Shown here piece by piece: positions 10,808-24,697 of a stretch of DNA of 32,000 nucleotides (positions are counted from its first letter, which is position 1; each line of letters opens with the position of its first letter). The position numbers and the translations under genes are program-made. Below the pieces are notes generated by a model. The model had not been told where the DNA came from, made no database searches, and was given only the letters and a program-made list of their open reading frames with translations. The DNA is from Candidatus Saccharimonadota bacterium (GTDB lineage Archaea; Nanobdellota; Nanobdellia; Pacearchaeales; GW2011-AR1): positions 210,001-242,000 of the forward strand of contig JAFCEL010000001.1 of the NCBI GenBank assembly GCA_017609205.1, given 5' to 3'.

Positions 10808-11557
10808 ATGTCTGATTTTGAGATGTTAGTCAAAATAGAGAATCCTCTCACTTTTACAAAAGTAATTGAGATCATATCTGAGTTGGTCTCAGAAGTAAGA
10901 ATGAACTTTAATGAATTTGGAATGAGCATTACAGCTATTGACCCTGCAAATGTTGCAATGGTTGGGTTCAGGATTCCAAAAAGTTCTTTTTCCCAATTTG
11001 AAACAGGAGATGAAGTAATAGGAGTCAATTTAGATAATCTTAAGAAGATTATGAAAAGAACAAATTCTGGAAGTTCTGTTATACTCAAAAAAAGAGAAAA
11101 TCTTCTTGATATAGAAATTCAAGACAGAATAAAAAGAAAATTCAGTTTAAACCTAATTGATATTGAAAATGAAGAAATTGATTTTGAAGAAAAAACATCA
11201 AGAATGATGTTTAGTTCAAAAGTTGAACTAAATTCTTCAGATTTTATTGATTCCATCGAAGATTGCATTGTTGTTGCAGATGCATGTTCTTTTATAATTG
11301 AAGAAGGCAAATTTATTATTGAAGCAAAAGAAATGAATTCAGCAAGAGCAGAATTTTCTGATGAAGCATTAATTTCAGGCGAGAATTGTAAATCAAGATA
11401 TAGCTTAGAATATCTCTCCAAGTTTACAAAAGCATCAAAACTCTGTGACAAAACAAAGATAAGCCTTGCAAATAATCATCCACTTAGGATTGATTTCAAG
11501 ATTAATGCAATTGAATTAAGTTTTATTCTTGCTCCAAGAGTAGAAACAGAAGATTAA
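10808..11557 (+). CDS. pcn: DNA polymerase sliding clamp PCNA
   Basis: 249 aa. FEMLVKIENPLTFTKVIEIISELVSEVRMNFNEFGMSITAIDPANVAMV ... YSLEYLSKFTKASKL ... FILAPRVETED is a typical archaeal PCNA N- and C-terminus. Confidence 0.9.
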   Translation: MSDFEMLVKIENPLTFTKVIEIISELVSEVRMNFNEFGMSITAIDPANVAMVGFRIPKSSFSQFETGDEVIGVNLDNLKKIMKRTNSGSSVILKKRENLLDIEIQDRIKRKFSLNLIDIENEEIDFEEKTSRMMFSSKVELNSSDFIDSIEDCIVVADACSFIIEEGKFIIEAKEMNSARAEFSDEALISGENCKSRYSLEYLSKFTKASKLCDKTKISLANNHPLRIDFKINAIELSFILAPRVETED

Positions 11558-11802
11558 AACCGAATCCAGTATAAAAGTGCCCCTAAATTCCCTAAGAATT
11601 CTAAAAACTTGCTATCAGATTCTTTTTTATGAATTTTAAGGGACTCTTCATTAGCAGGAACTGAATAACCCACTGCATTAGGAGAAACTAATTCATTCTG
11701 AAAATTATATGCAGGAGGAGAATGAGTACATCCTCCAAAAAGAATTAATCCAGCCAAAGAAGAAACTACCAACTTATCCTTTATTGTTCTCCTCATGTAC
11801 AT
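11554..11802 (-). CDS. Small putative lipoprotein or secreted protein (82 aa)
   Basis: The signal peptide has a lipobox-like LILFGGC. A TATA box on the minus strand (complement of 11821-11827) lies 25 nt upstream of its ATG. Confidence 0.5.
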   Translation of the reverse strand: MYMRRTIKDKLVVSSLAGLILFGGCTHSPPAYNFQNELVSPNAVGYSVPANEESLKIHKKESDSKFLEFLGNLGALLYWIRF

Positions 11803-11820: not shown

Positions 11821-11847
11821 ATATAAACCTTTTGAAAAAGTTTATAT
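11821..11847. promoter_or_regulatory. 27-bp imperfect palindrome forming back-to-back BRE/TATA elements (bidirectional promoter, possible operator)
   Basis: ATATAAACcTTTT-g-AAAAaGTTTATAT: 13-nt arms with one mismatched pair. The left arm read on the minus strand is AAAAGGTTTATAT, 25 nt from the ATG at 11802. The right arm read on the plus strand is AAAAAGTTTATAT, upstream of the RHH gene at 11891. Confidence 0.5.
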
Positions 11848-11890: not shown

Positions 11891-12025
11891 ATGAAAGTTA
11901 GAATTTCTGCAACAATAGATAAAGAAACCTTAAAAATTGTAAAAGAATTTCTAGAAAAAGGAACATACAGAAATAAATCACATGTTATTGAAGAAGCAAT
12001 TAAATCCTTGAAGAGAAAGAAATGA
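11891..12025 (+). CDS. Ribbon-helix-helix (CopG/Arc-like) DNA-binding protein, 44 aa, not in the ORF track
   Basis: My translation is MKVRISATIDKETLKIVKEFLEKGTYRNKSHVIEEAIKSLKRKK. It shows a beta-strand (VRISATID), helix A, a G-x-x-x-N/S turn and helix B. Its TGA overlaps the next ATG (ATGA at 12022-12025). Confidence 0.7.
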   Translation: MKVRISATIDKETLKIVKEFLEKGTYRNKSHVIEEAIKSLKRKK

Positions 12026-12792
12026 AAAGAGGGCAAGCAACAATTTTTATTATTGGAGGAGTAGTCCTAATAAGCTTTCTAGTTTTCTTCTTTTTATTTA
12101 AGGGAAAAATAATACCTCCAAAACTAGGGAGCAAAGAAACAAACCCCAACCTTTTTCTTGAATCATGTATAGAAAAAAAGACAAAAGAAGCAATAAAGAT
12201 AATGGCTCCTCAAGGAGGGTACATTAATCCTGAATTTAGTTTTAAATTTAAATTTAGCGACGGAGATTTCCAGAATATATCTTATCTTTGTTATACTCAG
12301 AATTATTATATTCCCTGTATTAATCAAGAACCAATGTTAATTGAACATTTAAAAAAAGAGATAAAAGATTATATTGCAGAGGATGTTGAAAATTGTTTTG
12401 ATAGTTTTATTTCTGATTTGAAAGAACAGAACTATGAAGTAAATTCATCATATTCTGGATTTGATATTGAATTAGCCCCTAAAAAAATCTTAGTTAAGAT
12501 ATACGGAGAAATAATCACTGAGAAAACAGGTGAAACATTAAAACGAGAGAATTTTGAGGTAAGGATTCCTACAAAGATTTATGATTTAGCAATTGTTGCT
12601 CAAGAAATTATCAGCCAAGAAGCAGAATACTGTCATTTTGACCAAGTAGGATTTATGATTCTGAATCCAAAGTTCGAACTTAATAAATTCAAGACAGGAG
12701 ATTCAGATATAATTTATACAATAATAGATAAAGACAGTAAGGAGGAATTTCGATTCGCAGTGAGAAGCTGTGTGATACCACCAGGAATGTAA
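12022..12792 (+). CDS. Class III (prepilin-like) signal-peptide protein, module copy 1 (256 aa)
   Basis: The N-terminus MKRG|QATIFIIGGVVLISFLVFFFLF has a short basic leader, then G-Q, then about 20 hydrophobic residues. It is colinear with the paralog at 16640-17413 (shared C.E...K, GG.INP, YLCYT..YY..C..Q.P.L..H...EI). Confidence 0.7.
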   Translation: MKRGQATIFIIGGVVLISFLVFFFLFKGKIIPPKLGSKETNPNLFLESCIEKKTKEAIKIMAPQGGYINPEFSFKFKFSDGDFQNISYLCYTQNYYIPCINQEPMLIEHLKKEIKDYIAEDVENCFDSFISDLKEQNYEVNSSYSGFDIELAPKKILVKIYGEIITEKTGETLKRENFEVRIPTKIYDLAIVAQEIISQEAEYCHFDQVGFMILNPKFELNKFKTGDSDIIYTIIDKDSKEEFRFAVRSCVIPPGM

Positions 12793-15700
12793 TGATGAAA
12801 AAGAATATTCTTACAACAACAGTCATATTTCAGATTTTCTTATTAGCAATTACAGTTTTCGCAAATAGCTATAATCTTCATTCAAGTGATTTAATTCCTG
12901 TTGTCTCTGCAGAGGATTCGTTCTCCTGTTGCCCAAAAACAAATGATGGAGCAATTTGTCAGGATGTTTCTTCTGATTATTCTAACTGTGCTGAAGAACT
13001 CCTTCCAACAAAATGCGATTATGTTGCAAAATGTAAATTAGGTTGCTGTATCGACGAAAAAGAAGGCTTATGCACAACAAATTCTCCAAAAGGAAAATGT
13101 GAAGAAGATGGGGGAATCTGGCAAGAGGATAAAAATTGTAACACATTTGAATGTCAAAAAGGTTGTTGCGTATTAGGTGAAAAGGTTGAGTTCATTACAG
13201 AGGATAGATGCAATAAACTATCATTATTATTTGGATTTGATAAGGATTTCAGGGATTTGGAAACAGAATTGGAGTGTTTTGCACTCGAAAAAAGCCAACC
13301 TGAGGGAGCATGCATATTTAATGGGGGTGTTTGCAAATTTACCACTGAAAGTGAATGCAGAAAACTAGGAGGAAAATTCTCAGAAGGCAATCTCTGTTCT
13401 AAAGAAAGTTTGAATACTATTTGTGAAAGACAAGCATCTATTGGGTGTGTTGAGGGAAAAGATGAAATTTACTGGTTTGACAGCTGTGGGAATAAAGAGA
13501 ATATTTACTCTTCTAATAAAGATGCTTCCTGGAACAATGGAGAAGTTCTAAAAAAAGAAGATAGCTGTGGAGCTGGTTCTTCAAATATTAATTCAAAATC
13601 TTGCGGGAATTGTAACTATTTCCTTGGGAGTAAGTGTGCAGAATCTTCATCAGGAAAAGCCAGAGTCGATGATGGAAATTTCGTCTGTAAAAATCTGAAT
13701 TGTATTGACGAGAACGGAAAAGAAAGAGTAAATGGAGAAAGTTGGTGTGTTTATGATTCATTCATTGGAGACGGAAAAGATGCTGTAGGTTCAAGACACT
13801 GGAAAAGAATGTGTATTAATGGAGAGATAAAAGTAGAGCCCTGTGCGGATTATCGTGGGCAAATATGCGTCCAGTCGAATATAAACGGAACCGGGAGAAA
13901 CTTCTCAATAGCTGCTTGTGTCATTAATGAAGCAACAAAATGTCTTAGTTATAATTCTAATCAAGACATGGATTCTTGCAGAAAGAACGAATATTGTGTT
14001 GTTAAAGAGATTAATGTAGACTCTGGTTTTCAATTTGATGTATGCGTGGGAAAATACCCAAAGGGTTTTGACCTGACAGGAGAGGAATATCTAGAATCGC
14101 GGGATATGTGTGGAATAGCGAGCCAAAAATGCGAAGTGCTTTATGTAAAAGATTGGAAAGGGCACTGGAAATGCAAAAAGAACTGCAACTGCGAGAGTGA
14201 AGAATTTTCAAAGCAAATGAATGATTTGTGTATTTCTCTCGGAGATTGTGGAAGTTACATTAATTATATTGGGGATGGAACAGACAATTCAGATGTGGAA
14301 AATGCTCCTGAAATACCGTGGCAGGATTACAAAAAATTCGCAGAGCCAGTAAAAGGGTTATATGCAGAAGCAAAGGATATAGAAGAAGTCTTAGAGGTAA
14401 TTAAAAAAGATTATAGAAAAGATTCTAATGCCAAAGGACAAGAGAAGAATAGTTTTGCAGAAGGAATAAAATTGCTCGGAACAATATCAAGTTCCACAGG
14501 AAGTCTAATTAGTGGGTTGGCATGGGCTGGAGGATCAGTAAAAATTATTGGGGCAGGACAAACAATACCTTCAGGAGCCCAAGTTTTAGGAGGGAGTGTG
14601 GTTACTGGTCCTGCAGGAGGATCTTCCTTAGTTGCTGGAGAAGGAGGAACATTAGTTGCTACTAAAGGCGCAATAGGAGGTCAGGGATTGGTTGGAACAA
14701 CACTCGGTTCTGTAGGGGCTGCTGCAGGGGGAATTGGGATTGGAATGACTGTTGGGTCTTTCGCTGCAAAAGCATTTGGAATTAAAGGAAATGCTGCAAC
14801 ATTCTTATCATTAGCAGGGGGAATAGCAGGGGGAATAGCTGGATATGGTGCATTTGCATATAGTGCTGCTTCAACAGCAGCAGGGGGAGGAGCTGCAGGA
14901 GCAGCAGCAGGCTCTAGTGCAGCAGGAGGATTAGGAGGAATCTCTACTTTCGGAGGTTCTTCACTCTTCACAGGATCTTTCGGACCCATGATGGCAGCAT
15001 TTGCATGGGCTGTGATTGTTGTTGTCGTCCTAGCAGTTGTTATAAAAATCATTGGTTGGGGGGACACAAAGATAGTCACTGTTCAATTTGAATGCATGCC
15101 ATGGGAAGCACCCTTAGGAGGGGATAATTGTAATAAATGCAATGACGATCCCTTGAAACCTTGTTCCAAATATAGATGTGAAAGCTTAGGACAGGCATGT
15201 ATATTATTAAATGAAGACACTGAAAATCCTGTTTGTGAAAGCTTGCCAAAAGAAGACAATCCCCCAGTAATTTCTACTGGCGAGATTCTCGATGATCTCA
15301 CATTTCTCAATACAGGAGAATCAAAAACAGAGATAAGTGAAATCGGAAAAAAGTGTATTACAGAATTCAAACCTGTTTTGTTCTCCTTAAATACCGACGA
15401 ATATGCACAATGCAAGTATAGTTTTGAAAAAACAAAAAATTACGACGAAATGGAGCAATTCCCTCTTGAACAAAATAAATTCTCAAAGAATCATACATTT
15501 GCTTTTTCAATACCAAGTGTTGATAGCCTCAATACTTACAACACTATCAAAAATATCAGTGAAATGTTTTCAGAAATGAATATGTATATTAGATGCCAAG
15601 ATGTTCATGGGAATTATAACAAAGACGAATATACTGTTCATTTCTGCATTAATTCAGGACCAGATATAACCCCTCCTATTCTCGTTGCTACAAACCCAAA

Positions 15701-16595
15701 ACATAATTCTTATGTCAAATATGGAACAAAAGAAATTCCGGCTGAAATATATCTCAATGAACCATCAGATTGCAAATATGATACTAGAGATGTAAGTTAT
15801 GAAGCAATGTCCCATAATATGACTTGCTTTACAGAACTATTGCAACTTACTGACTTTGGCTGGAAATGCTCTACAACATTAAAAGGTTTCGATAAGGAAG
15901 AGAATAAATTTTATATTAGATGCAAAGACCAACCATGGCTTGTCAATGATTCTGTAAAGATAGTAAATGAAAAAACAAATGAAACAACTTATAAAACAAG
16001 AAACGTGAATACAGAAAGTTTTATTTTTACATTGAAAAGTTCATTAAACAAACTAAATATCACCTCCATCTCCCCAAAAGGAGAGATTAGTGGGGGTTTT
16101 GAACCAATAACTGTTGATCTAGAAGTTAAAACTTCTGGAGGCGCAAACAATGGAGAAGCAACATGTTACTACAAATTTTCAGAGAATGAAACAGAAACAT
16201 TATTTTTTGATACTTTCTCTAATATTCACAAACAAACATTTAACAGCATGATGAGTGGGAATTATAAAATTTGGGTCAGATGCGAAGATGATGCAGGAAA
16301 TATCGCAGAAGATACAACAGAATTTGAATTAAATCTCGATACAAAACCCCCAATAGTTGTGAGAGTGTATTCTGAAGACGGGAAAATTAGGTTAATAACA
16401 AATGAGGAAGCAGAATGTTATTATGATTTTGATAGATGTAATTTTAATTTTGAAAATGCAAGTTCAATGACAAATTTCTTTTCAAAAGAGCACAAAATAG
16501 AAAAAATCTCAGGACAAACCTATTATGTAAAATGTAAAGATATCTGGGGTAATTATGGAAATGGTTGTAGTATCATTATAAAGACCTTTAGCTAG
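12792..16595 (+). CDS. Giant (1267 aa) Cys-rich surface protein: Sec signal, ~490-aa Cys-rich domain, Gly/Ala-rich glycine-zipper/TM region and four Ig-like repeats
   Basis: The start shares 1 nt with the upstream stop (TAATG). The signal peptide is MMKKNILTTTVIFQIFLLAITVFA. The N-terminal domain is colinear with the 489-aa paralog at 17414-18883. G/A-rich segments lie at nt ~14478-14997, followed by the TM AFAWAVIVVVVLAVVIKII. The C-terminal repeats each have C[KY]Y ... [IV][RK]C.D(..GN). Confidence 0.85.
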   Translation: MMKKNILTTTVIFQIFLLAITVFANSYNLHSSDLIPVVSAEDSFSCCPKTNDGAICQDVSSDYSNCAEELLPTKCDYVAKCKLGCCIDEKEGLCTTNSPKGKCEEDGGIWQEDKNCNTFECQKGCCVLGEKVEFITEDRCNKLSLLFGFDKDFRDLETELECFALEKSQPEGACIFNGGVCKFTTESECRKLGGKFSEGNLCSKESLNTICERQASIGCVEGKDEIYWFDSCGNKENIYSSNKDASWNNGEVLKKEDSCGAGSSNINSKSCGNCNYFLGSKCAESSSGKARVDDGNFVCKNLNCIDENGKERVNGESWCVYDSFIGDGKDAVGSRHWKRMCINGEIKVEPCADYRGQICVQSNINGTGRNFSIAACVINEATKCLSYNSNQDMDSCRKNEYCVVKEINVDSGFQFDVCVGKYPKGFDLTGEEYLESRDMCGIASQKCEVLYVKDWKGHWKCKKNCNCESEEFSKQMNDLCISLGDCGSYINYIGDGTDNSDVENAPEIPWQDYKKFAEPVKGLYAEAKDIEEVLEVIKKDYRKDSNAKGQEKNSFAEGIKLLGTISSSTGSLISGLAWAGGSVKIIGAGQTIPSGAQVLGGSVVTGPAGGSSLVAGEGGTLVATKGAIGGQGLVGTTLGSVGAAAGGIGIGMTVGSFAAKAFGIKGNAATFLSLAGGIAGGIAGYGAFAYSAASTAAGGGAAGAAAGSSAAGGLGGISTFGGSSLFTGSFGPMMAAFAWAVIVVVVLAVVIKIIGWGDTKIVTVQFECMPWEAPLGGDNCNKCNDDPLKPCSKYRCESLGQACILLNEDTENPVCESLPKEDNPPVISTGEILDDLTFLNTGESKTEISEIGKKCITEFKPVLFSLNTDEYAQCKYSFEKTKNYDEMEQFPLEQNKFSKNHTFAFSIPSVDSLNTYNTIKNISEMFSEMNMYIRCQDVHGNYNKDEYTVHFCINSGPDITPPILVATNPKHNSYVKYGTKEIPAEIYLNEPSDCKYDTRDVSYEAMSHNMTCFTELLQLTDFGWKCSTTLKGFDKEENKFYIRCKDQPWLVNDSVKIVNEKTNETTYKTRNVNTESFIFTLKSSLNKLNITSISPKGEISGGFEPITVDLEVKTSGGANNGEATCYYKFSENETETLFFDTFSNIHKQTFNSMMSGNYKIWVRCEDDAGNIAEDTTEFELNLDTKPPIVVRVYSEDGKIRLITNEEAECYYDFDRCNFNFENASSMTNFFSKEHKIEKISGQTYYVKCKDIWGNYGNGCSIIIKTFS

Positions 16596-16610
16596 TCGTA
16601 ATAAAGAAAA

Positions 16611-16618
16611 TTTATAAA
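16611..16618 (+). promoter_or_regulatory. Internal TATA box (tttataaa) for the second module
   Basis: aaagaaaatttataaa, centred about 26 nt upstream of the ATG at 16640, inside the 44-nt gap after the giant gene. Confidence 0.45.
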
Positions 16619-16639
16619 CAAGAGTTATTTAATAGAATT

Positions 16640-17413
16640 ATGACAAATAAAAGAGGACAAATAACTATTTTCATCATTATTGGAATAATAATTGTAGGTC
16701 TTGCTATTGTCATTTACCTTGTGTTCCCTCAAATAAAAACAAAGATAGGATTATCTTCAAAGAACCCTTCTTCTTTTATGCAGGCATGTATGGAGGATTC
16801 AATAAAAGAAACCGTAAAAACAATCTCTTCTAATGGAGGGAGTATTAACCCAAAAAACTATGTGTTGTATAACAATAATAAAATAGAATATTTATGTTAC
16901 ACTAATGAATATTACAAAACATGTGTTGTTCAAAGACCCCTTCTTAAAAGACATATTGAAGAAGAAATAGAAAAAGAAATAAAAGACGAAGCAAAAAATT
17001 GCCTTGATAAACTAAAAGAAAATTATGAGAGTAGAGGATATAATGTGAACATAAAAGATGGGAATATTGATGTTGAATTGCTGCCTGAGATTATTGCAGT
17101 AAATTTTAATAATAGTGTTGTTCTTACAAAAGACCCCTCTGAAAAATATGATCTTCTAAGAATTTCTGTCAAAAATAATCTTTATGAGCTGATTAGTATT
17201 GCAAACAGTATAATTCAATGGGAAGCAAGTTATGGCGATGCTGAAACAACAACATACATGAATTATTATCATGATTTAAAAGTTGAAAAGAAAAAACAAT
17301 CAGACGGAACAACAATATATATCTTAACTAACAGAAATACAGGAGATAAATTTCAATTTGCATCAAGGAGTTTAGCATGGCCTCCTGGTTATGGTGCAGA
17401 AGGAGTTGCTTAA
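16640..17413 (+). CDS. Class III (prepilin-like) signal-peptide protein, module copy 2 (257 aa)
   Basis: The N-terminus is MTNKRG|QITIFIIIGIIIVGLAIVIYLVF. It is a paralog of 12022-12792. Confidence 0.7.
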   Translation: MTNKRGQITIFIIIGIIIVGLAIVIYLVFPQIKTKIGLSSKNPSSFMQACMEDSIKETVKTISSNGGSINPKNYVLYNNNKIEYLCYTNEYYKTCVVQRPLLKRHIEEEIEKEIKDEAKNCLDKLKENYESRGYNVNIKDGNIDVELLPEIIAVNFNNSVVLTKDPSEKYDLLRISVKNNLYELISIANSIIQWEASYGDAETTTYMNYYHDLKVEKKKQSDGTTIYILTNRNTGDKFQFASRSLAWPPGYGAEGVA

Positions 17414-18883
17414 ATGAATGAGAAGATTTTAATCTTGTTTGTAGGAATCTTATTAGTTGCAACATTCGTTAGTGCAGAGACATCATATTGCTGCGAGAGA
17501 TTAATCTCAGGGGCATGGTGTCAGAATGCTCCAGAAAGCAGTTGTGACAATAATTATAGGGTTGTTCCTACTTCTTGTGAATCCACTTCTTATTGCAAAT
17601 TAGGAACATGCATTGACAGTGAAGAAGGAACCTGTATAGAGAATACACCTCAGAAAGTTTGTGAAGATTCTAAAGGAGTTTGGTATGATAAAGATAGTGA
17701 TGAAGTTCCCCAATGTAACTTGGGTTGTTGTATTCTAGGAGATCAAGCAGCATTTGTTACAAAAACAAGATGTAAAAGATTATCCTCGTTGTATGGTCTT
17801 GAAACAAATTTCCGGGATGATATTAATGGGGAATTTCAGTGTATTGCAAGCGCGACTTCAGAAGTAAAAGGGGCATGTGTTTTTGATAGAGAATATGAAA
17901 GAACATGCTTAATTCTAACAAAAAAAGAATGTGCTGAGATGCAGATAGCAAATAAAACAGAATTCTATGAAGGAAGATTATGTTCTGACGAGACTCTTAA
18001 CACAAATTGCGGACCTTCTGAAAAAACAACATGTGTTGAGGGAAAAGATGAAGTTTATTTCTTAGATACTTGCGGAAATATCGCGAATATATATGATGCT
18101 TCAAAAATAAATGACAAAGAATATTGGGCAAAGATTAAAGATAAATCAGAGAGTTGTAATTATGGTTCTTCAAACGCCAATTCTGCAACATGTGGAAATT
18201 GTGACTATTATCTTGGAAGCACTTGTAAAGATTATAAATTAAATAAGGGGAATAGAAAACCCACTTATGGAACAAATGTTTGCCAAGACTTAAGCTGTGA
18301 ATATAATGGGAAAAAATATGAGCATGGAGAAACATGGTGTGCAGAGAGCAAAGGTTCAGAAGACAATCTTCCTGGTTCAAGATATTTTAGAATGATATGT
18401 TACAATGGAGAAGTAAGTGTTGAACCTTGCGCTGATTTCAGACAAGAGATTTGTATTGAATCAGAAATCGAAGGATTCAGTACTGCTGCATGCAGAGTTA
18501 ACAGATGGCAAGATTGTGTTTCACAAGGAAATTCAAAAGACTGCGAAAATGAAGACAGAAGAGACTGTATTTGGTTGGGAAAAGGACAGGGATGTGTTCC
18601 AAAATATGCCCCTGGATTTAATTTTTGGGAAAGTGGGGATGCTGAATCAATATGTTCGCAAGCAAATATGGAGTGCGAGGTTGTTTATGAAAAAACATTG
18701 GGAGGAGATAAAAAATGTGTGAGTGGATGCGAATGTATTTCAGATTCATGGAAAAGCAAGATGAATCAAATGTGTGTTTCTCTCGGAGATTGTGGAAGCA
18801 GTACAAATTACATTGGAATAAAAGGATATCACGACGAGAATGCTGTTTACTCTGGCACTGCAGATAAAGAAGATAAAGAGTAA
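17414..18883 (+). CDS. Secreted Cys-rich protein (489 aa), short paralog of the N-terminal domain of the giant protein
   Basis: The ATG immediately follows the upstream TAA. The signal peptide is MNEKILILFVGILLVATFVSA. I count about 43 Cys by hand. Shared blocks with 12792-16595 are CVEGKDE.Y..D.CGN, CGNC.Y.LGS.C, GSR....MC.NGE..VEPCAD.R..IC and C.SLGDCGS. It has no TM after the signal peptide. Confidence 0.85.
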   Translation: MNEKILILFVGILLVATFVSAETSYCCERLISGAWCQNAPESSCDNNYRVVPTSCESTSYCKLGTCIDSEEGTCIENTPQKVCEDSKGVWYDKDSDEVPQCNLGCCILGDQAAFVTKTRCKRLSSLYGLETNFRDDINGEFQCIASATSEVKGACVFDREYERTCLILTKKECAEMQIANKTEFYEGRLCSDETLNTNCGPSEKTTCVEGKDEVYFLDTCGNIANIYDASKINDKEYWAKIKDKSESCNYGSSNANSATCGNCDYYLGSTCKDYKLNKGNRKPTYGTNVCQDLSCEYNGKKYEHGETWCAESKGSEDNLPGSRYFRMICYNGEVSVEPCADFRQEICIESEIEGFSTAACRVNRWQDCVSQGNSKDCENEDRRDCIWLGKGQGCVPKYAPGFNFWESGDAESICSQANMECEVVYEKTLGGDKKCVSGCECISDSWKSKMNQMCVSLGDCGSSTNYIGIKGYHDENAVYSGTADKEDKE

Positions 18884-18895
18884 TTTAAGTTAAGA

Positions 18896-18902
18896 TTTAT
18901 AA
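18896..18902 (+). promoter_or_regulatory. Internal TATA box (tttataa) for the four-gene pilin-like block
   Basis: aagatttataag, centred about 26 nt upstream of the ATG at 18925, in the 41-nt gap. Confidence 0.4.
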
Positions 18903-18924
18903 GTTAAAGTTTTCTTTTATATAA

Positions 18925-19416
18925 ATGAAAAAAAAGGGGCAAATGAAATTATCTTTTGGGATGATTTTTACTATTATCCTCATTGTCGCGTTTATGGCCT
19001 TTGCATTTTATGCTATACAGAAGTTTCTAGGAATGCAGAGAACACTTGAAGTAGGAAGTTTTGCAAGTACTTTCCAAGAAGACATTAACAGAATGTGGAA
19101 AAGTTCCGAAGGATCCCAGGAAAAAGAATATTATCTTCCAAAAAGAATAGAAAAAGTCTGCATAATTGACTATAGTTCTAATTTAAGAGGAAAAAACAAA
19201 GAGATTGGAGATAAATTAAAACAAGTCTTTTATGAAAAAGAGAATATATTCTTCTACCCTCTTGGTTCTGCAGAAGGGCTTGATGCTTTAGCGATTGAAC
19301 ATCTCGACTTAAAAGAAATAACAAAAGAAGAGAATCCATTCTGTATTGAGAATTCTGGAAAAATAAAAGTAATAATAAAAAAAGATTATGAAAACTCTCT
19401 TGTAATAATAAAATGA
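18925..19416 (+). CDS. Class III signal-peptide (pilin-like) protein, 163 aa
   Basis: The N-terminus is MKKKG|QMKLSFGMIFTIILIVAFMAFAFYAI. This KGQ..LSF pattern resembles the euryarchaeal DUF361-type prepilin signal (from memory). Confidence 0.65.
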   Translation: MKKKGQMKLSFGMIFTIILIVAFMAFAFYAIQKFLGMQRTLEVGSFASTFQEDINRMWKSSEGSQEKEYYLPKRIEKVCIIDYSSNLRGKNKEIGDKLKQVFYEKENIFFYPLGSAEGLDALAIEHLDLKEITKEENPFCIENSGKIKVIIKKDYENSLVIIK

Positions 19417-20333
19417 ATAAGGGCTATCTTGATTTTTCATTTGCGACGATTTTTGCGATTATTGCAGGTATTTTCATTTTAGGTCTTGCTATTTATGGTT
19501 CGACAAGACTATTAAAGACAGAACAAGAAGTCCAGGATGTAAAAACAGGAAAAGAAATCGGAATCTTATTGAACCCCCTTGAAATAGGATATGAAACAGG
19601 AAAAGTCACTTCTTTTTCTATTCCTGCAGACACAAGAATTTACAATAATTGCAAAGAAGAAGGTGTTTTTGGAAGACAACTCATTAAAATATCTCAAAAA
19701 AGTTTTGGTAAATGGACTGAAACAGACTTGAACGTTAGTTTTGAGAATAAATATATTTTCTCGAAAAGGCCTGTTGAAGGAAAAGAATTCTACTTATTCT
19801 CAAAACCATTTGAATTTCCATTTAAAGTCAGTGACCTGATTTACATGACTTCTGCGAAAGATTCTTATTGTTTTGTGAACCCCCCAGAAGAAGTTAGAGG
19901 TGAATTATCTTCATTAAACCAGAAGAATATTTTTCTAGATAATTGTTCAGAAGAGAGTACAATAATTTGCTTTAATGAATTTGAAGACTGCGACGTAAAA
20001 ATCAATTATGAAGAGGGTTATTTAAAAAAGAATAATAACGTTCTTTATTTCAAAGGAGATGCCTTAATGTATGCAGGTGTTTTTTCTGATGCTGGGAGTT
20101 ATGAGTGTCAATTAAAGAGATTAATGAAAAGAGTGGGAGTATTAGCCCAAGTTTACTCTGATAAAGCTAATTTTGTCTCAAGAAGAGGATGTAATTCAAA
20201 TTTAAATGAAGATTTGCTTAGATTAATTAACTTTTGCAATAATTTCAAAGATTCATCAGAGATAAAATTAGTTGCCAAGATTTCAGAGGAAATACAAAAT
20301 AAAAATAAATTTGCAGAGTGTAAATTATGGTAA
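19413..20333 (+). CDS. Class III signal-peptide (pilin-like) protein, 306 aa
   Basis: ATGA overlap with the upstream gene. The N-terminus is MNKG|YLDFSFATIFAIIAGIFILGLAIYG. Several Cys occur in the globular part. Confidence 0.6.
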   Translation: MNKGYLDFSFATIFAIIAGIFILGLAIYGSTRLLKTEQEVQDVKTGKEIGILLNPLEIGYETGKVTSFSIPADTRIYNNCKEEGVFGRQLIKISQKSFGKWTETDLNVSFENKYIFSKRPVEGKEFYLFSKPFEFPFKVSDLIYMTSAKDSYCFVNPPEEVRGELSSLNQKNIFLDNCSEESTIICFNEFEDCDVKINYEEGYLKKNNNVLYFKGDALMYAGVFSDAGSYECQLKRLMKRVGVLAQVYSDKANFVSRRGCNSNLNEDLLRLINFCNNFKDSSEIKLVAKISEEIQNKNKFAECKLW

Positions 20334-20857
20334 AGGAAAAATCAATCCGAGCACAAGTAAAAATCCAACAGATGCTTTTCATGCTATTAGCAATAACTTT
20401 ATTTTTTGTACTTGTTGGAATTTTCTTGATTGTTATTGGTTTTTCAGGGTTGAAGGAATCTGCCATTGAATTGCAAGAAAAAAATTCACTCTTATTAGTT
20501 ACTAAACTTGCCAACTCACCTGAATTCTCGTGTGGCGAATCATTTGGAAGCAATAAAATAAATTGTATCGACGGAGATAAAATTATGATGCTAAAAGAGA
20601 ACAGTGAAAAATACAAGAATTTTTGGGGAGTATCCAATATTGAAATAAGAAAAATTTATCCAGAAACTGATGGAAAGAAAGAATGCACAATTAATAACTA
20701 TCCTGAATGTAATATTATGAAAATTTACTCAAAAGAAAGTTTGGGTGTAGATGTCTCAAATTTTGTAACATTATGCAGGAAAGAATTATCATTGGGGGGC
20801 GGTAGTTATGACAAATGTGAGATCGCTAAAATGATTGTTCGTTATGAATTAGAATGA
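20327..20857 (+). CDS. Pilin-like or N-terminally anchored protein, 176 aa
   Basis: 7-nt overlap with the upstream gene. The N-terminus is MVKEKSIRA|QVKIQQMLFMLLAITLFFVLVGIFLIVIG, with a less canonical cleavage site. Paired Cys occur in the ectodomain. Confidence 0.5.
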   Translation: MVKEKSIRAQVKIQQMLFMLLAITLFFVLVGIFLIVIGFSGLKESAIELQEKNSLLLVTKLANSPEFSCGESFGSNKINCIDGDKIMMLKENSEKYKNFWGVSNIEIRKIYPETDGKKECTINNYPECNIMKIYSKESLGVDVSNFVTLCRKELSLGGGSYDKCEIAKMIVRYELE

Positions 20858-21336
20858 AAAACAAAAAAGGACAGGAAGAATTCGTAGGTTTTGGTCTGAT
20901 AATAATAGTCGTAGCAGTAATATTATTGATTTTTCTAAGTTTTGTTCTTAAAAAAAATTCACAAAAAGAGTATGTTGAAAGTTATGAAGTTGAAAGTTTT
21001 ATACAATCAGCTCTTCAATATACTACAGACTGCGAAGACAATCTTGAATTTCTGTCAATCCAAAAAGTTATCTTCAGTTGTATTGACAAAGAAACTTGTT
21101 TAGATAAAAGAAGTAGCTGTGATGTATTAAATGAAACCTTAAAAGAAATTGTTGAAAAAAGTTGGAGAGTTGAAAAAGGAAGTACAATCCAAGGATATAA
21201 AATGCAGATTATAGATGGCGAGCAAGAAATTATTAGTATAAAGAAAGGGAATGAAACAAAGAATAATAAAGGTTCTAAACAACATTTTAGCAGAGGGGGT
21301 AATGAAGTAGAAATCTCTTTTACTGTATATTATTAA
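20854..21336 (+). CDS. Class III signal-peptide (pilin-like) protein, 160 aa
   Basis: ATGA overlap with the upstream gene. The N-terminus is MKNKKG|QEEFVGFGLIIIVVAVILLIFLSF. Confidence 0.65.
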   Translation: MKNKKGQEEFVGFGLIIIVVAVILLIFLSFVLKKNSQKEYVESYEVESFIQSALQYTTDCEDNLEFLSIQKVIFSCIDKETCLDKRSSCDVLNETLKEIVEKSWRVEKGSTIQGYKMQIIDGEQEIISIKKGNETKNNKGSKQHFSRGGNEVEISFTVYY

Positions 21337-21677
21337 ATTTTTATATTAATTATTATTGAATCTACAATAATTTTTGGCCTATGTCTAATTCTCTTGCCTT
21401 CTTTTTCTTCAACAAAGGAAATAAAACCAAATCTCTCTAGCAATTTTACATCATCAAAAACAGATTTGAAATTTCTGCCTAGAATTTTAGCAAGAGAATA
21501 GATTGAATCTGGATTTTGATTTTTTATCGTATCAAGAATTCTTGCTTTTTCATTGCTTAGAAGATTCCTTATAGCAGAAATTCCTGAAAAATCATAATCT
21601 TTTTTTGAAGTTCCCTTTTTTCTAAATAAATTGAAGGTTCCTTTTGAAAGAGTAATTATCAATTCTCGTTTAGCCAT
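21333..21677 (-). CDS. Winged-helix transcriptional regulator (ArsR/MarR-like, small HTH family)
   Basis: 114 aa. LLSNEKARILDTIKNQNPDSIYSLAKILGRNFKSVFDDVKLLERFGFISFVEEKEGKRIRHRP is a typical wHTH. It is convergent with the pilin-like operon and overlaps its end by 4 nt. Confidence 0.65.
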   Translation of the reverse strand: MAKRELIITLSKGTFNLFRKKGTSKKDYDFSGISAIRNLLSNEKARILDTIKNQNPDSIYSLAKILGRNFKSVFDDVKLLERFGFISFVEEKEGKRIRHRPKIIVDSIIINIKI

Positions 21678-22042: not shown

Positions 22043-24697
22043 ATGAAATTTAATTTTAGAAAAGTTGCTGCTGTTGCAAGTAGTGCATTAATGGTCGGTA
22101 TGACCATGGGTGTTGCTGCTGCTGCAAATTATCCTGCACCTTTCGTTGTCGGAAGTAATGCAGATGTAGCAATTGTTTATGGTACAGGTGCTGGTGTATC
22201 TTCACTGGACTTGATCCAAGCAGGCAATATTCAAACAAATCTTCAATCTGCTATGGGAACAACAAGCAGTGGAACAAGCACAACTGTTACAGGTGAAGCT
22301 TATGCGTTATTCACAAGTTCATCTAAGATTTATATGAACACAAGTTTGAATAGCGTTAGAACAACACTAACAGATACAGAATTGCCAGTTGTTCTTGCTG
22401 ATGGCCAATTTGAAGGTGATCAGACAAGAGATTACACCCAAACAATTACAATTGGTTCTACACCAATTCTTGAGTTTGGAAATCATCCAACAAGTGATGA
22501 TGACCCAACTGTTGCATTCTCAACAGGAACAAGCACATCAAATGTACTTTATAATTTAACAGTTACATTTGACGGAGCTGTTAACTTTACCGATTCTGAT
22601 TCAATCGGAGAATCAATGACAATCTTCGGTAAACAATACACTGTTGGTGCTGGAACTACAAGTACAAAACTTTACTTGTATGAATCCTCAGAAACAGTTG
22701 AGTTATCTATTGGTGGCTCTAACCCTACATCGCAGACAGTTACAGTCAATGGTGAAACATATACTGTTGAACTTACAGGTGCATCTGACAGTTCAGCTAC
22801 TATTAAGGTAACAGATAGTAGTGGAGCATCTCAAACAAAAGAGATTAACGAAGATGCCTCAAAGAAAGTTCAAGGTATAGACATTGCTGTAAACCTTGCT
22901 GATGAGGATACTGCTACAAATAGATTAACTGCAGAGATTACTGTTGGTGCTAATAAGATACTGCTTCAAGACGGAAACAAGGTAAAAGTTGGTTCTGATG
23001 AAGACAGTATTGATGGAACACTTGTAACAAAGAGTGGAACTAATTGGGCAGCGTCCACAGGTTTCACAATAGGTATTGTTCCAGAAGATACAGATGTTGA
23101 TGCTATTGTAGCTGGTGAAAGTTTCACAGACCCTGTGTTTGGAACATTAAAGATTGACTTTGCGTCTCTTTACTCAGATGATGATAGAGAGACTATCAAA
23201 ATAGCTCCATCAGGTGGAGACAAAGCAACTCTTGAAATGACCACACATACTGGTGCTACAAAAAAGATTAATTGGTTTTACAACGACAGCCTTGCTGCAA
23301 AATTAGCAGATGCTGGTGACTCTGGAAAAGACGTTATTCACGTCATGGAAGGAGAGAAAATCAATGTAACTCAGTATGTTGTTGTGGGTAATGAAGATGA
23401 AGGTTATCTTCTTGAATTCTATCAGTTCAGTAATGACACTGATGACCAAGATGATGAAATTATCTTCAGAGATGCTTTCAATCCAACAGATACATTCCAG
23501 GTAACAGGAATTACAACAGAAGGTACTGGTAGCTTAATTGTTGGTGGAAAAACTTACACAGTTTCATACCACGATGAAAGCGCCGAGGGTGCAGACTATG
23601 TAACTCTTGACTATCCTGATACCTCAACTGATAACTATTTTGTATTGTACCCTACAATACAAACATCAAAAGGAGCAAAAGTTGCTTTCTATGAACCTAA
23701 GATAGACCTCAATCTGAATAGCCCTGTAAATACCTCAACAGGTGATTTAGAAAGGTTGTATTTCCCTGACGGAGATGGATATACATACGTTAGCTTTGCT
23801 GTGAACGATTCAACTGAGTGGAACATTACTGTTCAAGGAGGATCAGCTTCCACACTCACCACAAATAATACTAGCGACTATGTAGACGTCTCTATTGGAC
23901 AATTGAAATATAGGTTCCAAGGTTCTGGAAACAATCTCACAGACATCTACTTATTAGATGCTGCAGAGAGCTCTACTCAAACACTTCCAGCAATTATCAT
24001 CTTTGAAGAAAAAGATGATGATAGTGAATATGAAGCATTGATTGTTGAAATGGATGCTAAATCATCTGCTTCAGAATTAGCAGGAGTTCAAGAAGTTGAA
24101 ACAACCTGGAATAACAATGCTGCATACACTGACTGGAATGAAATCCAGATGGAAGCAACAGATGATGACATCTATGCTACAATGGATAAATGGGGTACAC
24201 TTATCAAAACAGATAAGTCTGCTTCAGATCAATACAGTGTAGAGATCAGTTATCCTGATGAGCAGATTCACGCACAGGTTTATGTTGGTGAAGTTGGTGC
24301 TGAGATAACAGCAGGAAGTTCTACTGGAACATCTACTCCACTTGGAGAAGTTCTTGTAAAAGACAGTGAAGTTAGTTCTGTAAGCACAAAGAACTTGATT
24401 ATTATAGGTGGTAGTTGTATTAATTCAGCTGCTGCTACATTGTTAGGTGGTGCTTACTGTACTGCAGATTTCACAGCCCAGACAGGTGTTGGTTCTGGTG
24501 AGTTCTTGATCCAGAGCTTTGGTGATTCAAGCTTGACAAGTTCAGGCAAAATCGCATTGCTTGTCGCTGGTTATGATGCTGCAGACACTGTTAACGCTGC
24601 TAAGTATTTGACTACAAAAACAGTTGATACAACAGCAGGCAAGAAATACAAAGGAACTTCAGCAACTAGTGCAGAACTTGTAACAACGTCTGAATAA
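22043..24697 (+). CDS. S-layer protein (Methanococcus-type S_layer_N / S_layer_C architecture)
   Basis: Signal peptide MKFNFRKVAAVASSALMVGMTMGVAAA. The N-terminal ANYPAPFVVGSNADVAIVYGTGAG and C-terminal NLIIIGGSCINSAAATLLGG resemble euryarchaeal S-layer proteins. It is Thr/Ser/Asp-rich with almost no Cys. Its codon usage and G+C are visibly different from its neighbours, as in a highly expressed gene. Confidence 0.8.
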   Translation: MKFNFRKVAAVASSALMVGMTMGVAAAANYPAPFVVGSNADVAIVYGTGAGVSSLDLIQAGNIQTNLQSAMGTTSSGTSTTVTGEAYALFTSSSKIYMNTSLNSVRTTLTDTELPVVLADGQFEGDQTRDYTQTITIGSTPILEFGNHPTSDDDPTVAFSTGTSTSNVLYNLTVTFDGAVNFTDSDSIGESMTIFGKQYTVGAGTTSTKLYLYESSETVELSIGGSNPTSQTVTVNGETYTVELTGASDSSATIKVTDSSGASQTKEINEDASKKVQGIDIAVNLADEDTATNRLTAEITVGANKILLQDGNKVKVGSDEDSIDGTLVTKSGTNWAASTGFTIGIVPEDTDVDAIVAGESFTDPVFGTLKIDFASLYSDDDRETIKIAPSGGDKATLEMTTHTGATKKINWFYNDSLAAKLADAGDSGKDVIHVMEGEKINVTQYVVVGNEDEGYLLEFYQFSNDTDDQDDEIIFRDAFNPTDTFQVTGITTEGTGSLIVGGKTYTVSYHDESAEGADYVTLDYPDTSTDNYFVLYPTIQTSKGAKVAFYEPKIDLNLNSPVNTSTGDLERLYFPDGDGYTYVSFAVNDSTEWNITVQGGSASTLTTNNTSDYVDVSIGQLKYRFQGSGNNLTDIYLLDAAESSTQTLPAIIIFEEKDDDSEYEALIVEMDAKSSASELAGVQEVETTWNNNAAYTDWNEIQMEATDDDIYATMDKWGTLIKTDKSASDQYSVEISYPDEQIHAQVYVGEVGAEITAGSSTGTSTPLGEVLVKDSEVSSVSTKNLIIIGGSCINSAAATLLGGAYCTADFTAQTGVGSGEFLIQSFGDSSLTSSGKIALLVAGYDAADTVNAAKYLTTKTVDTTAGKKYKGTSATSAELVTTSE

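Follow-up and report, generated by a model that had tools for sequence, protein, structure and literature searches.

A conserved gene block encoding proteins with prepilin-type signals and cysteine-rich proteins beside the S-layer gene: a probable new cell-surface assembly of Pacearchaeota and Woesearchaeota

The window analyzed here is a stretch of 32,000 nucleotides of genomic DNA. Nine open reading frames, all on the plus strand, were verified at their coordinates by a direct check. They comprise a small regulator gene and eight structural genes, A to F, with A and B present in two copies, and are listed below with the associated sequence features and the two downstream neighbors.

11841..11846, plus strand: TTTAWA (TATA-like) box, found by sequence reading 50 nt 5' of the RHH start codon
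11891..12025, plus strand: RHH, 44-aa ribbon-helix-helix protein (Pfam RHH_1, E 2.2e-4); its stop overlaps the A1 start (ATGA)
12022..12792, plus strand: A1, 256 aa, MKRG|Q; membrane helix, flexible linker and globular alpha/beta ectodomain; cognate partner of B1
12792..16595, plus strand: B1, 1267-aa envelope protein with 66 Cys (Cys count, hydrophobicity profile)
aa 1-24 of B1, plus strand: Sec signal
aa 38-495 of B1, nt 12903-14276, plus strand: disulfide-rich head, followed by a linker
aa 559-757 of B1, nt 14466-15062, plus strand: Gly/Ala-rich segment and strong transmembrane helix (hydrophobicity profile)
aa 767-816 of B1, plus strand: conserved Cys motif
aa 817-1267 of B1, nt 15240-16592, plus strand: four Ig-like repeats
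16611..16616, plus strand: TTTAWA box, exactly 29 nt 5' of the A2 ATG
16640..17413, plus strand: A2, 257 aa, MTNKRG|Q, paralogue of A1; the conserved copy and partner of B2
17414..18883, plus strand: B2, 489 aa, 43 Cys; secreted, made of the disulfide-rich head only, with a Sec signal ending VSA|E
18896..18901, plus strand: TTTAWA box, exactly 29 nt 5' of the C ATG
18925..19416, plus strand: C, 163 aa, pilin-like, K-[RK]-[G/A/S]|Q-M-K-L-S-F-G-M-I-F, with invariant Gly at +7
19413..20333, plus strand: D, 306 aa, pilin-like, the largest of C-F, K-[KR]-[G/A]|[Y/F/A]-L-[Q/E]-I-S-F
20327..20857, plus strand: E, 176 aa, pilin-like, K-[KR]-[A/G]|Q-L-K-I-Q-Q-M-A-F
20854..21336, plus strand: F, 160 aa, pilin-like, K-[KR]-[A/G/S]|Q-E-E-M-V-G-F
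21333..21677, minus strand: convergent winged-helix regulator, HVO_A0114 family (Pfam PF25212, E 3e-16); its stop overlaps the end of F
22043..24697, plus strand: S-layer protein gene, the fixed downstream neighbor, with an 884-aa product (S_layer_C in precomputed Pfam hits)

Direct reading of the sequence bore out the nine genes and six junctions of the initial annotation at the positions quoted there: ATGA at 12022, TAATG at 12792, TAA-ATG at 17411-17416, ATGA at 19413, a 7-nt overlap between D and E at 20327, and ATGA at 20854. C, D, E and F are translationally coupled. The gaps between B1 and A2 and between B2 and C measure 41-44 nt, and each contains a TTTAWA box exactly at -29 from the ATG. 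The same box is found upstream of 64 of 73 A2 orthologues and 20 of 32 C orthologues, and at about -29 in 14 of 38 genes related to A1; it is not conserved in relatives upstream of D, E or F, where 1-4 of about 35 genes carry it. Because the boxes are conserved before A2 and C and not before D, E or F, the block probably consists of three co-directional leaderless transcription units (RHH-A1-B1, A2-B2 and C-D-E-F) rather than the single nine-gene operon originally proposed. The boxes at 16611..16616 and 18896..18901 are the probable promoters of the leaderless A2-B2 and C-D-E-F transcripts, respectively, while the box at 11841..11846, weaker than these two, is a candidate promoter for the first unit.

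Pfam searches confirmed the identity of the flanking genes, i.e. the RHH gene at the head of the cluster, the convergent winged-helix gene and the S-layer gene after it. The RHH_1 match scores 21.5 bits, against a Pfam cut-off of 20.5, and the RHH gene is detectable by BLAST in 12 related loci. The winged-helix gene occupies the same position in 23 of the 30 related loci whose sequence continues for 9 kb or more beyond B2. The S-layer gene is BLAST-detectable in 14 loci, and S_layer_C is also among the precomputed Pfam hits of related loci L003 and L005; no transmembrane segment was found on reading the C-terminus of the S-layer protein.

The locus is strongly conserved. In Pacearchaeota and Woesearchaeota the cluster is syntenic, with PCNA on one side and the S-layer gene on the other; the order PCNA, cluster, winged-helix gene, S-layer gene recurs among related loci, and the gene order was found again in about 80 other species. 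B2 relatives occur in no fewer than 249 GTDB species, about 1850 protein clusters belong to each of the A and B2 families, and C, D, E and F are all present in 23 of the 30 loci that extend 9 kb or more past B2. The cluster is kept in very small genomes. Identity to orthologues is 52-58% for A2, B2, D and E, compared with 64% for PCNA; being nearly as high as that of PCNA, it argues for a core envelope machine and against a fast-evolving or host-specific adhesin. Such conservation is unusual for adhesins and was counted against the stalk or tip reading given below.

Searches of Pfam, NCBIfam, PHROGs, PADLOC and PDB assigned none of the eight structural proteins to a known family, in agreement with the initial annotation. 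The prepilin-like pattern which it had described at six N-termini (MKRG|Q, NKRG|Q, KKKG|Q, NKG|Y, IRA|Q and NKKG|Q) is present as quoted, and behind each of them lies a single, strongly hydrophobic segment (Kyte-Doolittle 19-residue mean 2.5-3.4). The five families involved (A in two copies, C, D, E and F) have in common a short basic leader, mostly of 4-12 residues, and a hydrophobic helix of about 20 residues, with a small residue at -1, basic residues at -2/-3 and Gln at +1, but Tyr, Phe or Ala in D. Their best-conserved part is the K-[KR]-[G/A/S]|Q junction with the hydrophobic stretch, identity being otherwise only 38-58%. Over 35-109 orthologues per family the motifs are invariant or nearly so: Gln+1 is found in 109/109 A sequences (Gly-1 in 106/109), 35/37 C, 36/36 E and 35/35 F, and Tyr, Phe or Ala at +1 in 34/37 D; F also keeps Glu+3 in 35/35 and Glu+2 in 33/35. 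With the gene order recurring in other species, this goes beyond chance. Since nothing else in these proteins is conserved as well as the junction and the hydrophobic stretch, the comparison supports class III (prepilin-type) signals, as opposed to arbitrary signal anchors, at the six N-termini. For the Methanococcus maripaludis peptidase EppA, a Gln at +1 was reported to be essential for processing (PMC4390842). The putative cut site of C, E and F is set off from the hydrophobic stretch by two to six polar residues, a spacing also counted against the stalk or tip reading.

A and B are strictly paired, A2 lying directly before B2 in 66/66 cases and an A1-type gene before B1 in 30/31. A1 and A2 share 30% identity (E 9e-37), and A2 has a median identity of 58% to its orthologues. 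A confident AlphaFold model of A (pLDDT 88.9) displays a 22-residue membrane helix, a disordered, proline-containing linker and a globular alpha/beta domain. Its comparison with solved structures in PDB by Foldseek gave no fold match, and no pilin was among the matches; as modeled, A is not pilin-shaped, and the search for a pilin fold, run on this protein, was thus negative.

The presence of two proteins with Sec signals and more than 40 Cys was verified for B1 and B2, whereas the view of B1 as simply secreted did not hold, given its Gly/Ala-rich segment and transmembrane helix. The B1 head is 39% identical to B2 (E 3e-95). B2 has 1841 relatives at 50-74% identity, and 30 invariant plus 8 nearly invariant Cys columns in 98 sequences; its confident AlphaFold model (pLDDT 82) is a chain of small beta-hairpin modules, with no fold match in PDB or in a viral structure library. 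Big_13 Ig-like matches were obtained for 18 of 42 orthologous C-terminal pieces, and are weak in B1 of the window. GxxxG-type motifs are repeated within the membrane segment of B1 and B2C; the latter is a separate piece in relatives, where its variable heads include LysM and HINT modules. Invariant Cys, Big_13 Ig-like repeats and the LysM/HINT modules of these heads all give B an extracellular character. Structure comparison revealed no resemblance of B to PilY1, the tip adhesin named in the initial comparison, or to any other solved adhesin.

Median identity to orthologues is 52% for D and 58% for E. C and D are homologous (hhalign probability 96.6%), and this supports what would be expected of a minor-pilin set. 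The C-F profiles matched no solved pilin and no Pfam pilin family, a PDB sequence search with D gave no match at E <= 5, and no candidate for a major pilin was found in the cluster.

As initially reported, the window lacks an ATPase, a platform protein and a peptidase of type IV filaments (TFF); none was found in about 52 kb around it (about 10 kb on each side), nor in the flanks of about 85-88 related loci. Pilins often lie at loci separate from the TFF machinery, and some DPANN have System 1 (Epd-type), 4A or Aap-like TFF systems (bioRxiv 10.64898/2026.04.22.720090). The genes flaB/H/I/J/K, including the signal peptidase FlaK, are reported to be present in most Woesearchaeota MAGs of one study (PMC11606122), and TFF ATPases are described from nanoarchaea in which no pilins were identified (PMC4858521). 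These reports were counted in favor of the stalk or tip reading given below. Counted against it was one preprint, according to which DPANN genomes miss type IV pilus components (10.1101/2020.05.14.094862).

Among known systems, the Epd-type (system 1) pili of M. maripaludis, with minor pilins EpdA-C and the dedicated peptidase EppA, share with the cluster a short basic leader, Gln+1 and a hydrophobic helix in several small proteins, and adhesin-like accessory proteins also occur (bioRxiv 10.64898/2026.04.22.720090). They differ in that the cluster proteins match neither Class_IIIsignal/DUF361 nor any other pilin family, no ATPase, platform protein, peptidase or small major pilin is encoded in or near the cluster, and the A and B families have no detectable counterpart. 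The likeness to bacterial minor-pilin and pseudopilin tip complexes (FimU-PilVWX with PilY1; GspH-I-J-K) is one of analogy only: four pilin-like genes, probably co-transcribed and translationally coupled, whose products differ in length (163, 306, 176 and 160 aa) and include one paralogous pair, are encoded together with large surface proteins other than pilins. The two systems are unrelated in sequence and fold, +1 is Gln instead of Phe/Met, Glu is absent at +5 and B, unlike the PilY1 beta-propeller, strings together disulfide-rich mini-modules and carries Ig repeats.

The A model, with its prepilin-type N-terminus, linker and globular ectodomain, recalls the sugar-binding proteins of the Sulfolobus 'bindosome', class III signal substrates that do not serve as filament subunits; substrate-binding proteins with such signals are widespread (TFF survey preprint, bioRxiv 10.64898/2026.04.22.720090). 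However, A resembles neither solute-binding proteins nor any solved fold, no transporter genes lie nearby, and A is strictly paired with a Cys-rich protein. By description only, B resembles the S-layer-like multi-Ig proteins of archaeal TFF loci (arCOG05057; Makarova 2016, 2026 TFF survey), which are large, belong to the envelope, combine conserved Cys with several Ig-like domains and are likewise encoded beside pilin-like and S-layer genes; to this plan B adds a 460-residue disulfide-rich head and a Gly-rich membrane segment.

Because the cleavage signal that characterizes type IV pilins is present in six of its gene products, the eight-gene block beside the S-layer gene is probably a new cell-surface assembly of Pacearchaeota and Woesearchaeota, found in hundreds of species. 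That the pilin-like proteins, once processed, build a tip complex or short stalk bearing the Cys-rich B proteins, as a variation on the type IV filament theme, is given somewhat less than an even chance. The priming or tip complex first envisaged is retained for its signals, the C-D homology and the conservation of the locus, and not for the fold of A, the PilY1 likeness or machinery near the locus; the non-pilin model of A and the lack of nearby machinery and of a major-pilin candidate were counted against it.

The membrane-anchored A and C-F proteins, cleaved or not, may instead form with B a set of posts that build no fibre and keep the S-layer protein, which lacks an anchor, at a constant spacing from the membrane, as a scaffold of a pseudo-periplasm functionally similar to SlaB of Sulfolobales or to the S-layer-binding ArlF/ArlG stator. 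The S-layer gene, always found next to the cluster and with a product that has no transmembrane segment, fits such tethering, as do the near-housekeeping conservation and fixed chromosomal position, which suit a structural core part, the Ig-like repeats of B, similar to those noted for S-layer-like proteins of TFF loci (TFF survey preprint), and the model of A, closer to an anchored globular ectoprotein than to a pilin. Yet adjacency of genes is by itself no proof of interaction, and a plain anchor could do without the invariant Gly|Gln junction. Neither sequence nor fold comparison (Pfam, Foldseek of A, C-F profiles) revealed a likeness to SlaB, ArlF or ArlG, and the best-conserved piece, B2, lacks its own anchor in this genome; this alternative is considered unlikely.

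Far less probable is a device for contact with, or penetration of, a host membrane, in which the Cys-rich head and the amphipathic, Gly-zipper-rich segment of B1/B2C would insert into the partner membrane, forming a bridge or pore that feeds the DPANN cell with lipids and metabolites, the pilin-like proteins acting as a delivery stalk. We know of no molecular basis for DPANN-host bridges, which was counted in its favor along with the repeated GxxxG-type motifs, the variable B2C heads with LysM and HINT modules, and the retention of the cluster in very small genomes; however, no similarity to fusogen folds emerged (archaeal Fsx1 at only E 2.6, probability 0.2; nothing in the viral library), and the high conservation of the head speaks against host-specific recognition. 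Equally improbable is a co-regulated group of unprocessed ectoproteins with ordinary type II anchors and a convergent prepilin likeness: no Pfam or NCBIfam pilin model recognizes any structural protein, peptidase and ATPase were not found nearby and, in the model of A, the membrane helix is free and followed by a linker, but five families keep K-[KR]-[G/A/S]|Q at a fixed distance from the hydrophobic core through deep divergence, and a plain anchor does not impose the complete conservation of Gln+1 seen in three of them (A, E and F).

In the stalk or tip reading, the three leaderless units would be controlled by the flanking RHH and winged-helix regulators. B1 and B2 would be exported by Sec, while A and C-F would be inserted N-in and cut after Gly/Ala by a class III signal peptidase of the EppA/FlaK/PibD type encoded elsewhere. 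By way of their N-terminal helices, C-F would assemble into a bundle that serves either as a minor-pilin-like complex for initiation or the tip, or as a short stalk, and that may be extruded across the sub-S-layer space by a TFF ATPase and platform protein also encoded elsewhere. A would enter this bundle, its globular domain gripping the disulfide-rich head of the cognate B, and B1 (as well as B2C in relatives) would contribute a Gly-zipper membrane anchor and an Ig-domain stalk. The best explanation of the locus is a lineage-wide envelope module of type IV-pilin-like proteins with Cys-rich cargo, which would present a conserved Cys-rich head at the S-layer or outside it, where the head would attach to a partner cell, to a surface or to the S-layer itself.

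The nine plus-strand genes examined encode a small ribbon-helix-helix (RHH) protein followed by A1, B1, A2, B2, C, D, E and F. The nine ORFs, their six start/stop junctions, the six N-termini and the Cys counts (66 in B1, 43 in B2) were read directly from the sequence and are all as described in the initial annotation; the underlying observation is real and robust. The neighboring assignments also stood: the leading small ORF exceeds the threshold of Pfam RHH_1, the convergent regulator is assigned to the HVO_A0114 winged-helix family, and the 884-aa product of the downstream S-layer gene has S_layer_C among its precomputed hits. The source organism is a DPANN archaeon of low GC (about 31%), and proteins identical to those of the window are found on JGI metagenome contigs (55-57 kb) and on an NCBI contig (511 kb). 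The window also encodes PCNA, a tRNA-intron endonuclease, SepF, prefoldin, diphthamide synthase and a fused PriS/PriL-type primase. Features are located as follows.

6130-7551 (-), Sec-signal surface protein, 473 aa
7659-9452 (-), Sec-signal surface protein, 597 aa, 30 Cys
9487-10737 (-), primase, a single 416-aa protein with small and large subunit domains
11554-11802 (-), 82-aa ORF between PCNA and RHH, hydrophobic N-terminus followed by a lipobox-like LFGGC
11891-21336 (+), RHH, A1, B1, A2, B2, C, D, E, F
14681-15079 (-), antisense ORF, 132 aa, a by-product of the Gly/Ala-rich composition of B1
21333-21677 (-), convergent winged-helix (wHTH) gene
24784-25353 (+), membrane-anchored protein, 189 aa, directly after the S-layer gene
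25394-26128 (+), membrane-anchored protein, 244 aa, following the former

The primase is 53-73% identical across related loci. The positions of the 597-aa and 473-aa proteins upstream of it are kept in 21 and 12 related loci, respectively; both proteins lack a Pfam family and show no similarity to B by BLAST. The 189-aa and 244-aa proteins recur after the S-layer gene in several related loci (e.g. L033, L034 and L069), with neither a family nor a Gly/Gln junction. The 82-aa ORF was found just in the two contigs of the window's own population, and in no other species.

In the protein database, the A and B2 families comprise about 1850 clusters each at 90% identity, all of them unnamed. A pattern scan, performed on one genome per GTDB species, detected a B2 relative in 249 species, the relatives being labelled Pacearchaeota, Woesearchaeota or Nanoarchaeota. 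ORFs were mapped in 80 of the loci from these species and in four more, and the gene order was found to recur: primase (-), PCNA, RHH (not always present), none to two A1-B1 pairs, A2, B2, B2C, C, D, E, F, wHTH (-) and the S-layer gene, where B2C is a separate gene matching the C-terminal half of B1. Among the 30 loci extending at least 9 kb past B2, all of C-F are found in 23, B2C in 22 and the wHTH gene in 23. An A2-type gene precedes B2 in 66 of 66 cases, and an A1-type gene precedes B1 in 30 of 31; this strict pairing implies that A and B proteins would form specific partnerships.

Median identities between each window protein and its orthologues in the mapped species set are 67% for the primase and 64% for PCNA, followed by A2 and E (58% each), B2 (55%), D (52%), F (50%), C (44%), B1 (43%) and A1 (38%). 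A2, B2, D and E are conserved almost as strongly as housekeeping genes, which argues, at the sequence level, for a core envelope device. A1/B1 and the head of B2C are the variable parts. Toxin-antitoxin pairs of the HepT/MNT type (HEPN plus nucleotidyltransferase) are often inserted between cluster genes in relatives, mostly in the A2/B2 or B2/B2C intervals (L003 15018-15624; L004 10809-11434 and 13204-14507; similar small-ORF pairs in many of L006-L085); the window is without any.

The block had been described as a single translationally coupled operon of nine genes. Sizeable intergenic gaps are just two, B1/A2 and B2/C, each containing a TTTAWA box that precedes the ATG by exactly 29 nt. In related genomes a box at about -29 is frequent before A2 (64/73) and C (20/32), is found before A1 in 14 of 38 cases, and is rare before D (4/35), E (2/35) and F (1/35). 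These putative promoter elements therefore favour a reading of the block as three co-directional units, (RHH)-A1-B1, A2-B2 and C-D-E-F, all probably leaderless, with transcription starts predicted upstream of 11891 and near 16640 and 18925. Genes are translationally coupled inside each unit, but a single operon is less likely. The start of gene C (18925-18942 in the window) reads MRKKGQ in one and MKKKGQ in the other of two same-population JGI contigs, L001 and L002 (gene at 16904-17395 in both), and is called differently in them (157 vs 163 aa), with the same cut-site motif.

The N-termini, initially annotated as prepilin-like, were evaluated on alignments of 109 A proteins from the protein database, and of 35-37 proteins each for C, D, E and F from related loci.

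Conserved N-terminal motifs of the five families. A slash marks the putative cut site, lying between residues -1 and +1.
A: K-[RK]-G/Q-[VIL]-T-I-F-I-I; Gly-1 in 106/109, Gln+1 in 109/109
C: K-[RK]-[GAS]/Q-M-K-L-S-F-G-M-I-F; Gln+1 in 35/37
D: K-[KR]-[GA]/[YFA]-L-[QE]-I-S-F-x-W-L-F; Tyr, Phe or Ala at +1 in 34/37
E: K-[KR]-[AG]/Q-L-K-I-Q-Q-M-A-F; Gln+1 in 36/36
F: K-[KR]-[AGS]/Q-E-E-M-V-G-F; Gln+1 in 35/35

A short basic leader, mostly of 4-12 residues, ending with G, A or S at -1 and carrying basic residues at -2/-3, is present in the orthologues of all five families (35-109 each), and one hydrophobic segment of about 20 residues per protein follows the putative cut site. In C, E and F, 2-6 polar residues (QMK, QLKIQQ, QEE) separate the site from the hydrophobic core. 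Invariant or near-invariant columns are concentrated within the first 25 residues or so, and the signal segments are the best-conserved region of proteins otherwise 38-58% identical across the same species. Since a plain signal anchor needs no conserved junction, and a class III (prepilin) peptidase site does, the prepilin-like assignment is accepted at the level of the signal. Gln at +1 has been reported as essential for processing by EppA, the pilin peptidase of M. maripaludis (PMC4390842). The proposed likeness to EppA/DUF361-type substrates is borne out by the Gln+1 of A, C, E and F, but not by D, which has Tyr, Phe or Ala, nor by the profile itself (Class_IIIsignal, PF04021), which has no match among the window proteins or, within the 25 most often matched of 51 families, among C-F orthologues. 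The motifs here are QVTIFII, QMKLSFG, QLKIQQM and QEEMVGF, against one of the QxSxExxxL type for DUF361.

No window protein matches a pilin family of Pfam or NCBIfam, and comparison of all eight structural proteins with Pfam, NCBIfam, PHROGs and PADLOC revealed noise at most, in agreement with the initial statement that no characterized family is recognized for any of them. As these searches of curated libraries were empty, a viral or defence origin was rejected. Similarly, 146 C-F orthologues compared with Pfam gave no pilin family among the 25 most often matched of 51 families, the commonest match being DUF7248 (5 members, best E 7e-4). Profiles of C, D, E and F found no significant match among PDB sequences; an N-terminal match to the type IV pilin PilE1, at E 1.4, was discarded as noise. 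Homology between C and D covers the N-terminus and extends through the first half of D (hhalign probability 96.6%), while the likeness of C to E and F is confined to the N-terminal segment. A Chou-Fasman sketch on the alignments wrongly assigned membrane helices to strand and was discounted as uninformative. No paper describing this gene cluster was found in the literature.

A2 is a paralogue of A1, with 30% identity between the two (E 9e-37). An AlphaFold model of A1, built with 109 sequences (pLDDT 88.9, pTM 0.78), features a membrane helix at 4-25, a disordered, proline-containing linker at 30-37 and a separate, compact alpha/beta domain. The pilin fold expected for A, a long N-terminal helix packed through its C-terminal half on an antiparallel beta-sheet, is not seen in the model, and a Foldseek search of PDB retrieved nothing comparable and no pilin (best match E 2e-3 with TM <= 0.17, none at E <= 0.001). 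From the model, with its free helix and linker, A is therefore a predicted globular ectoprotein anchored by a class III signal, whose modelled architecture is nearer to archaeal bindosome-type substrates than to filament subunits. With respect to the pilin superfamily, the signal features are present, while the fold of A and recognition by profiles are not. A YceG/MltG name, carried by a single A homologue from one JGI source, was rejected as it is without support from Pfam, NCBIfam or Foldseek.

Over its first 460 residues B1 shares 39% identity with full-length B2 (E 3e-95), and this region defines a disulfide-rich head. After the head, B1 has a linker and then a region rich in Gly and Ala that closes with a strong transmembrane helix (aa 559-757); a conserved Cys motif comes next, and four Ig-like repeats containing Cys complete the protein. 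The Gly/Ala-rich segment raises GC to 43% at 14001-15000, compared with about 31% in other parts. The alignment of B2 contains 30 invariant and 8 nearly invariant Cys columns, and its AlphaFold model, built with 98 sequences (pLDDT 82, pTM 0.59), consists of small beta-hairpin modules arranged in a chain. By Foldseek the model has no PDB match at E <= 0.001, resemblance being just at the level of modules (FN1/EGF-like hairpins), and none at E <= 0.001 in a viral structure library (best 0.12). The large PilY1-like tip adhesin initially proposed found no support: B1 and B2 have no Pfam match, and the B2 model has no Foldseek match to PilY1/PilC or to their C-terminal beta-propeller. A fusexin, or class II fusogen, was also discarded, archaeal Fsx1 (7p4l) being aligned over just 83 columns with E 2.6 and probability 0.2. 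B is a relative of neither.

In most relatives, B2 is followed by B2C, a gene encoding 680-950 aa (L005 12564-14789; L003 12500-14947; L065 13458-15842; L035 14027-17038). B2C is absent from the window, where its place would be between 18883 and 18925, and the window genome is unusual in this. The N-terminus of B2C, K-[KR]-G-x-[LI]-A-[IL]-S-Q-I followed by about 20 hydrophobic residues, could represent a further prepilin-like signal or, alternatively, a long Sec signal. The head is variable: aa 51-77 of the L065 protein form a LysM domain, and aa 93-228 of the L035 protein an autoprocessing domain, PT-HINT, each in a single species.

An ATPase and a platform protein of the type IV filament superfamily (TFF), or a class III peptidase of the A24 family, are encoded neither in the window, as already stated in the initial annotation, nor in the roughly 10 kb of the source contig that flank it on each side. 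In addition, 105 representative flank ORFs of related loci gave no T2SSE, T2SSF or A24 among the 25 most often matched of 114 Pfam families, and no ORF of 88 loci matched a regular expression for the secretion-ATPase Walker A motif. The literature on TFF machinery in this clade is mixed. One preprint reports type IV pilus components to be missing from DPANN (10.1101/2020.05.14.094862); flaB/H/I/J/K were described in most MAGs of a Woesearchaeota study, with flaB highly expressed (PMC11606122); some DPANN have system 1 (Epd-type), 4A or Aap-like filaments according to a 2026 survey, which also reports that pilins often lie at loci apart from the machinery (bioRxiv 10.64898/2026.04.22.720090). 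Makarova et al. described nanoarchaeal TFF ATPases without identified pilins (PMC4858521). Given these reports of flaK-type genes and TFF systems, a peptidase matching the signals is plausible in the clade, and putative for this genome.

The reading preferred here, tentatively and at somewhat less than an even chance, is that of a TFF-type pilin module, in which C-F and A would form a helix bundle carrying B heads at or beyond the S-layer. It is built on the five families with class III-type signals, the strict A-B pairing, the coupled C-D-E-F genes and the fixed place beside the S-layer gene. A and C-F would be cut after Gly/Ala; the N-terminal helices of C-F would bundle, giving either a short stalk or a complex of the minor-pilin kind, for initiation or at the tip, and machinery from other loci would serve it. 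A would dock in the same bundle and hold its cognate B by the disulfide-rich head, B1 (or B2C) would contribute a Gly-zipper membrane anchor and an Ig stalk, and the conserved head would be displayed at or beyond the S-layer. Closest in working principle are Epd/system 1 pili with their EppA-type Gln+1 substrates; bacterial minor-pilin/PilY1 or GspH-K tip complexes are close by analogy only.

A scaffold tethering the S-layer, without any fibre, would accommodate the position beside the S-layer gene and the globular domain modelled for A, and has less to say of prepilin-type signals in five families; we consider it rather unlikely, though the likeliest of the rival readings. A device for contact with, or penetration of, a host membrane could draw on the Gly-zipper segment, with the fusexin comparison standing against it, and is improbable. 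That A and C-F are plain, unprocessed anchors would suit a window free of peptidase genes, is at odds with the conserved junctions, and has an equally small chance. Least probable is a Pacearchaeota/Woesearchaeota contact apparatus, in which a pseudopilus-like stalk (C-F and A) would bear a conserved disulfide-rich head and the Gly-zipper segment of B would insert in the membrane of a partner cell, generating a bridge or pore; if true, this would be a previously unknown kind of intercellular machine, and not an accessory set for an ordinary pilus.

The initial interpretation was right on the signals and on the lack of annotation, and too specific on 'operon', 'adhesin' and 'host attachment'. 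We rate the block as a candidate TFF-type pilin module, whose protein families are all new and whose machinery would be encoded at a distance. Eight unannotated families are defined, A, B head, B tail, C, D, E and F, plus the split B2C form, which make up a syntenic surface module conserved near housekeeping level in at least 249 species, and, for Nanoarchaeota more broadly, are candidates for the pilin-like substrates still missing there. Predictions of the model are a cut between Gly/Ala and the invariant Gln, complexes of A with B in a 1:1 ratio, and a helix bundle made by C, D, E and F. The families may serve as targets in metaproteomics, in the interpretation of cryo-ET data and in enriching these organisms with antibodies or FISH.

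In groundwater, lakes and sediments, few uncultivated archaea are as abundant as Pacearchaeota and Woesearchaeota, and the module bears on how they build their envelope or contact other cells. Its value lies in its clade-wide occurrence, its near-housekeeping conservation and the concrete tests it offers; even if just an S-layer scaffold, it would still explain S-layer anchoring in a major archaeal clade.
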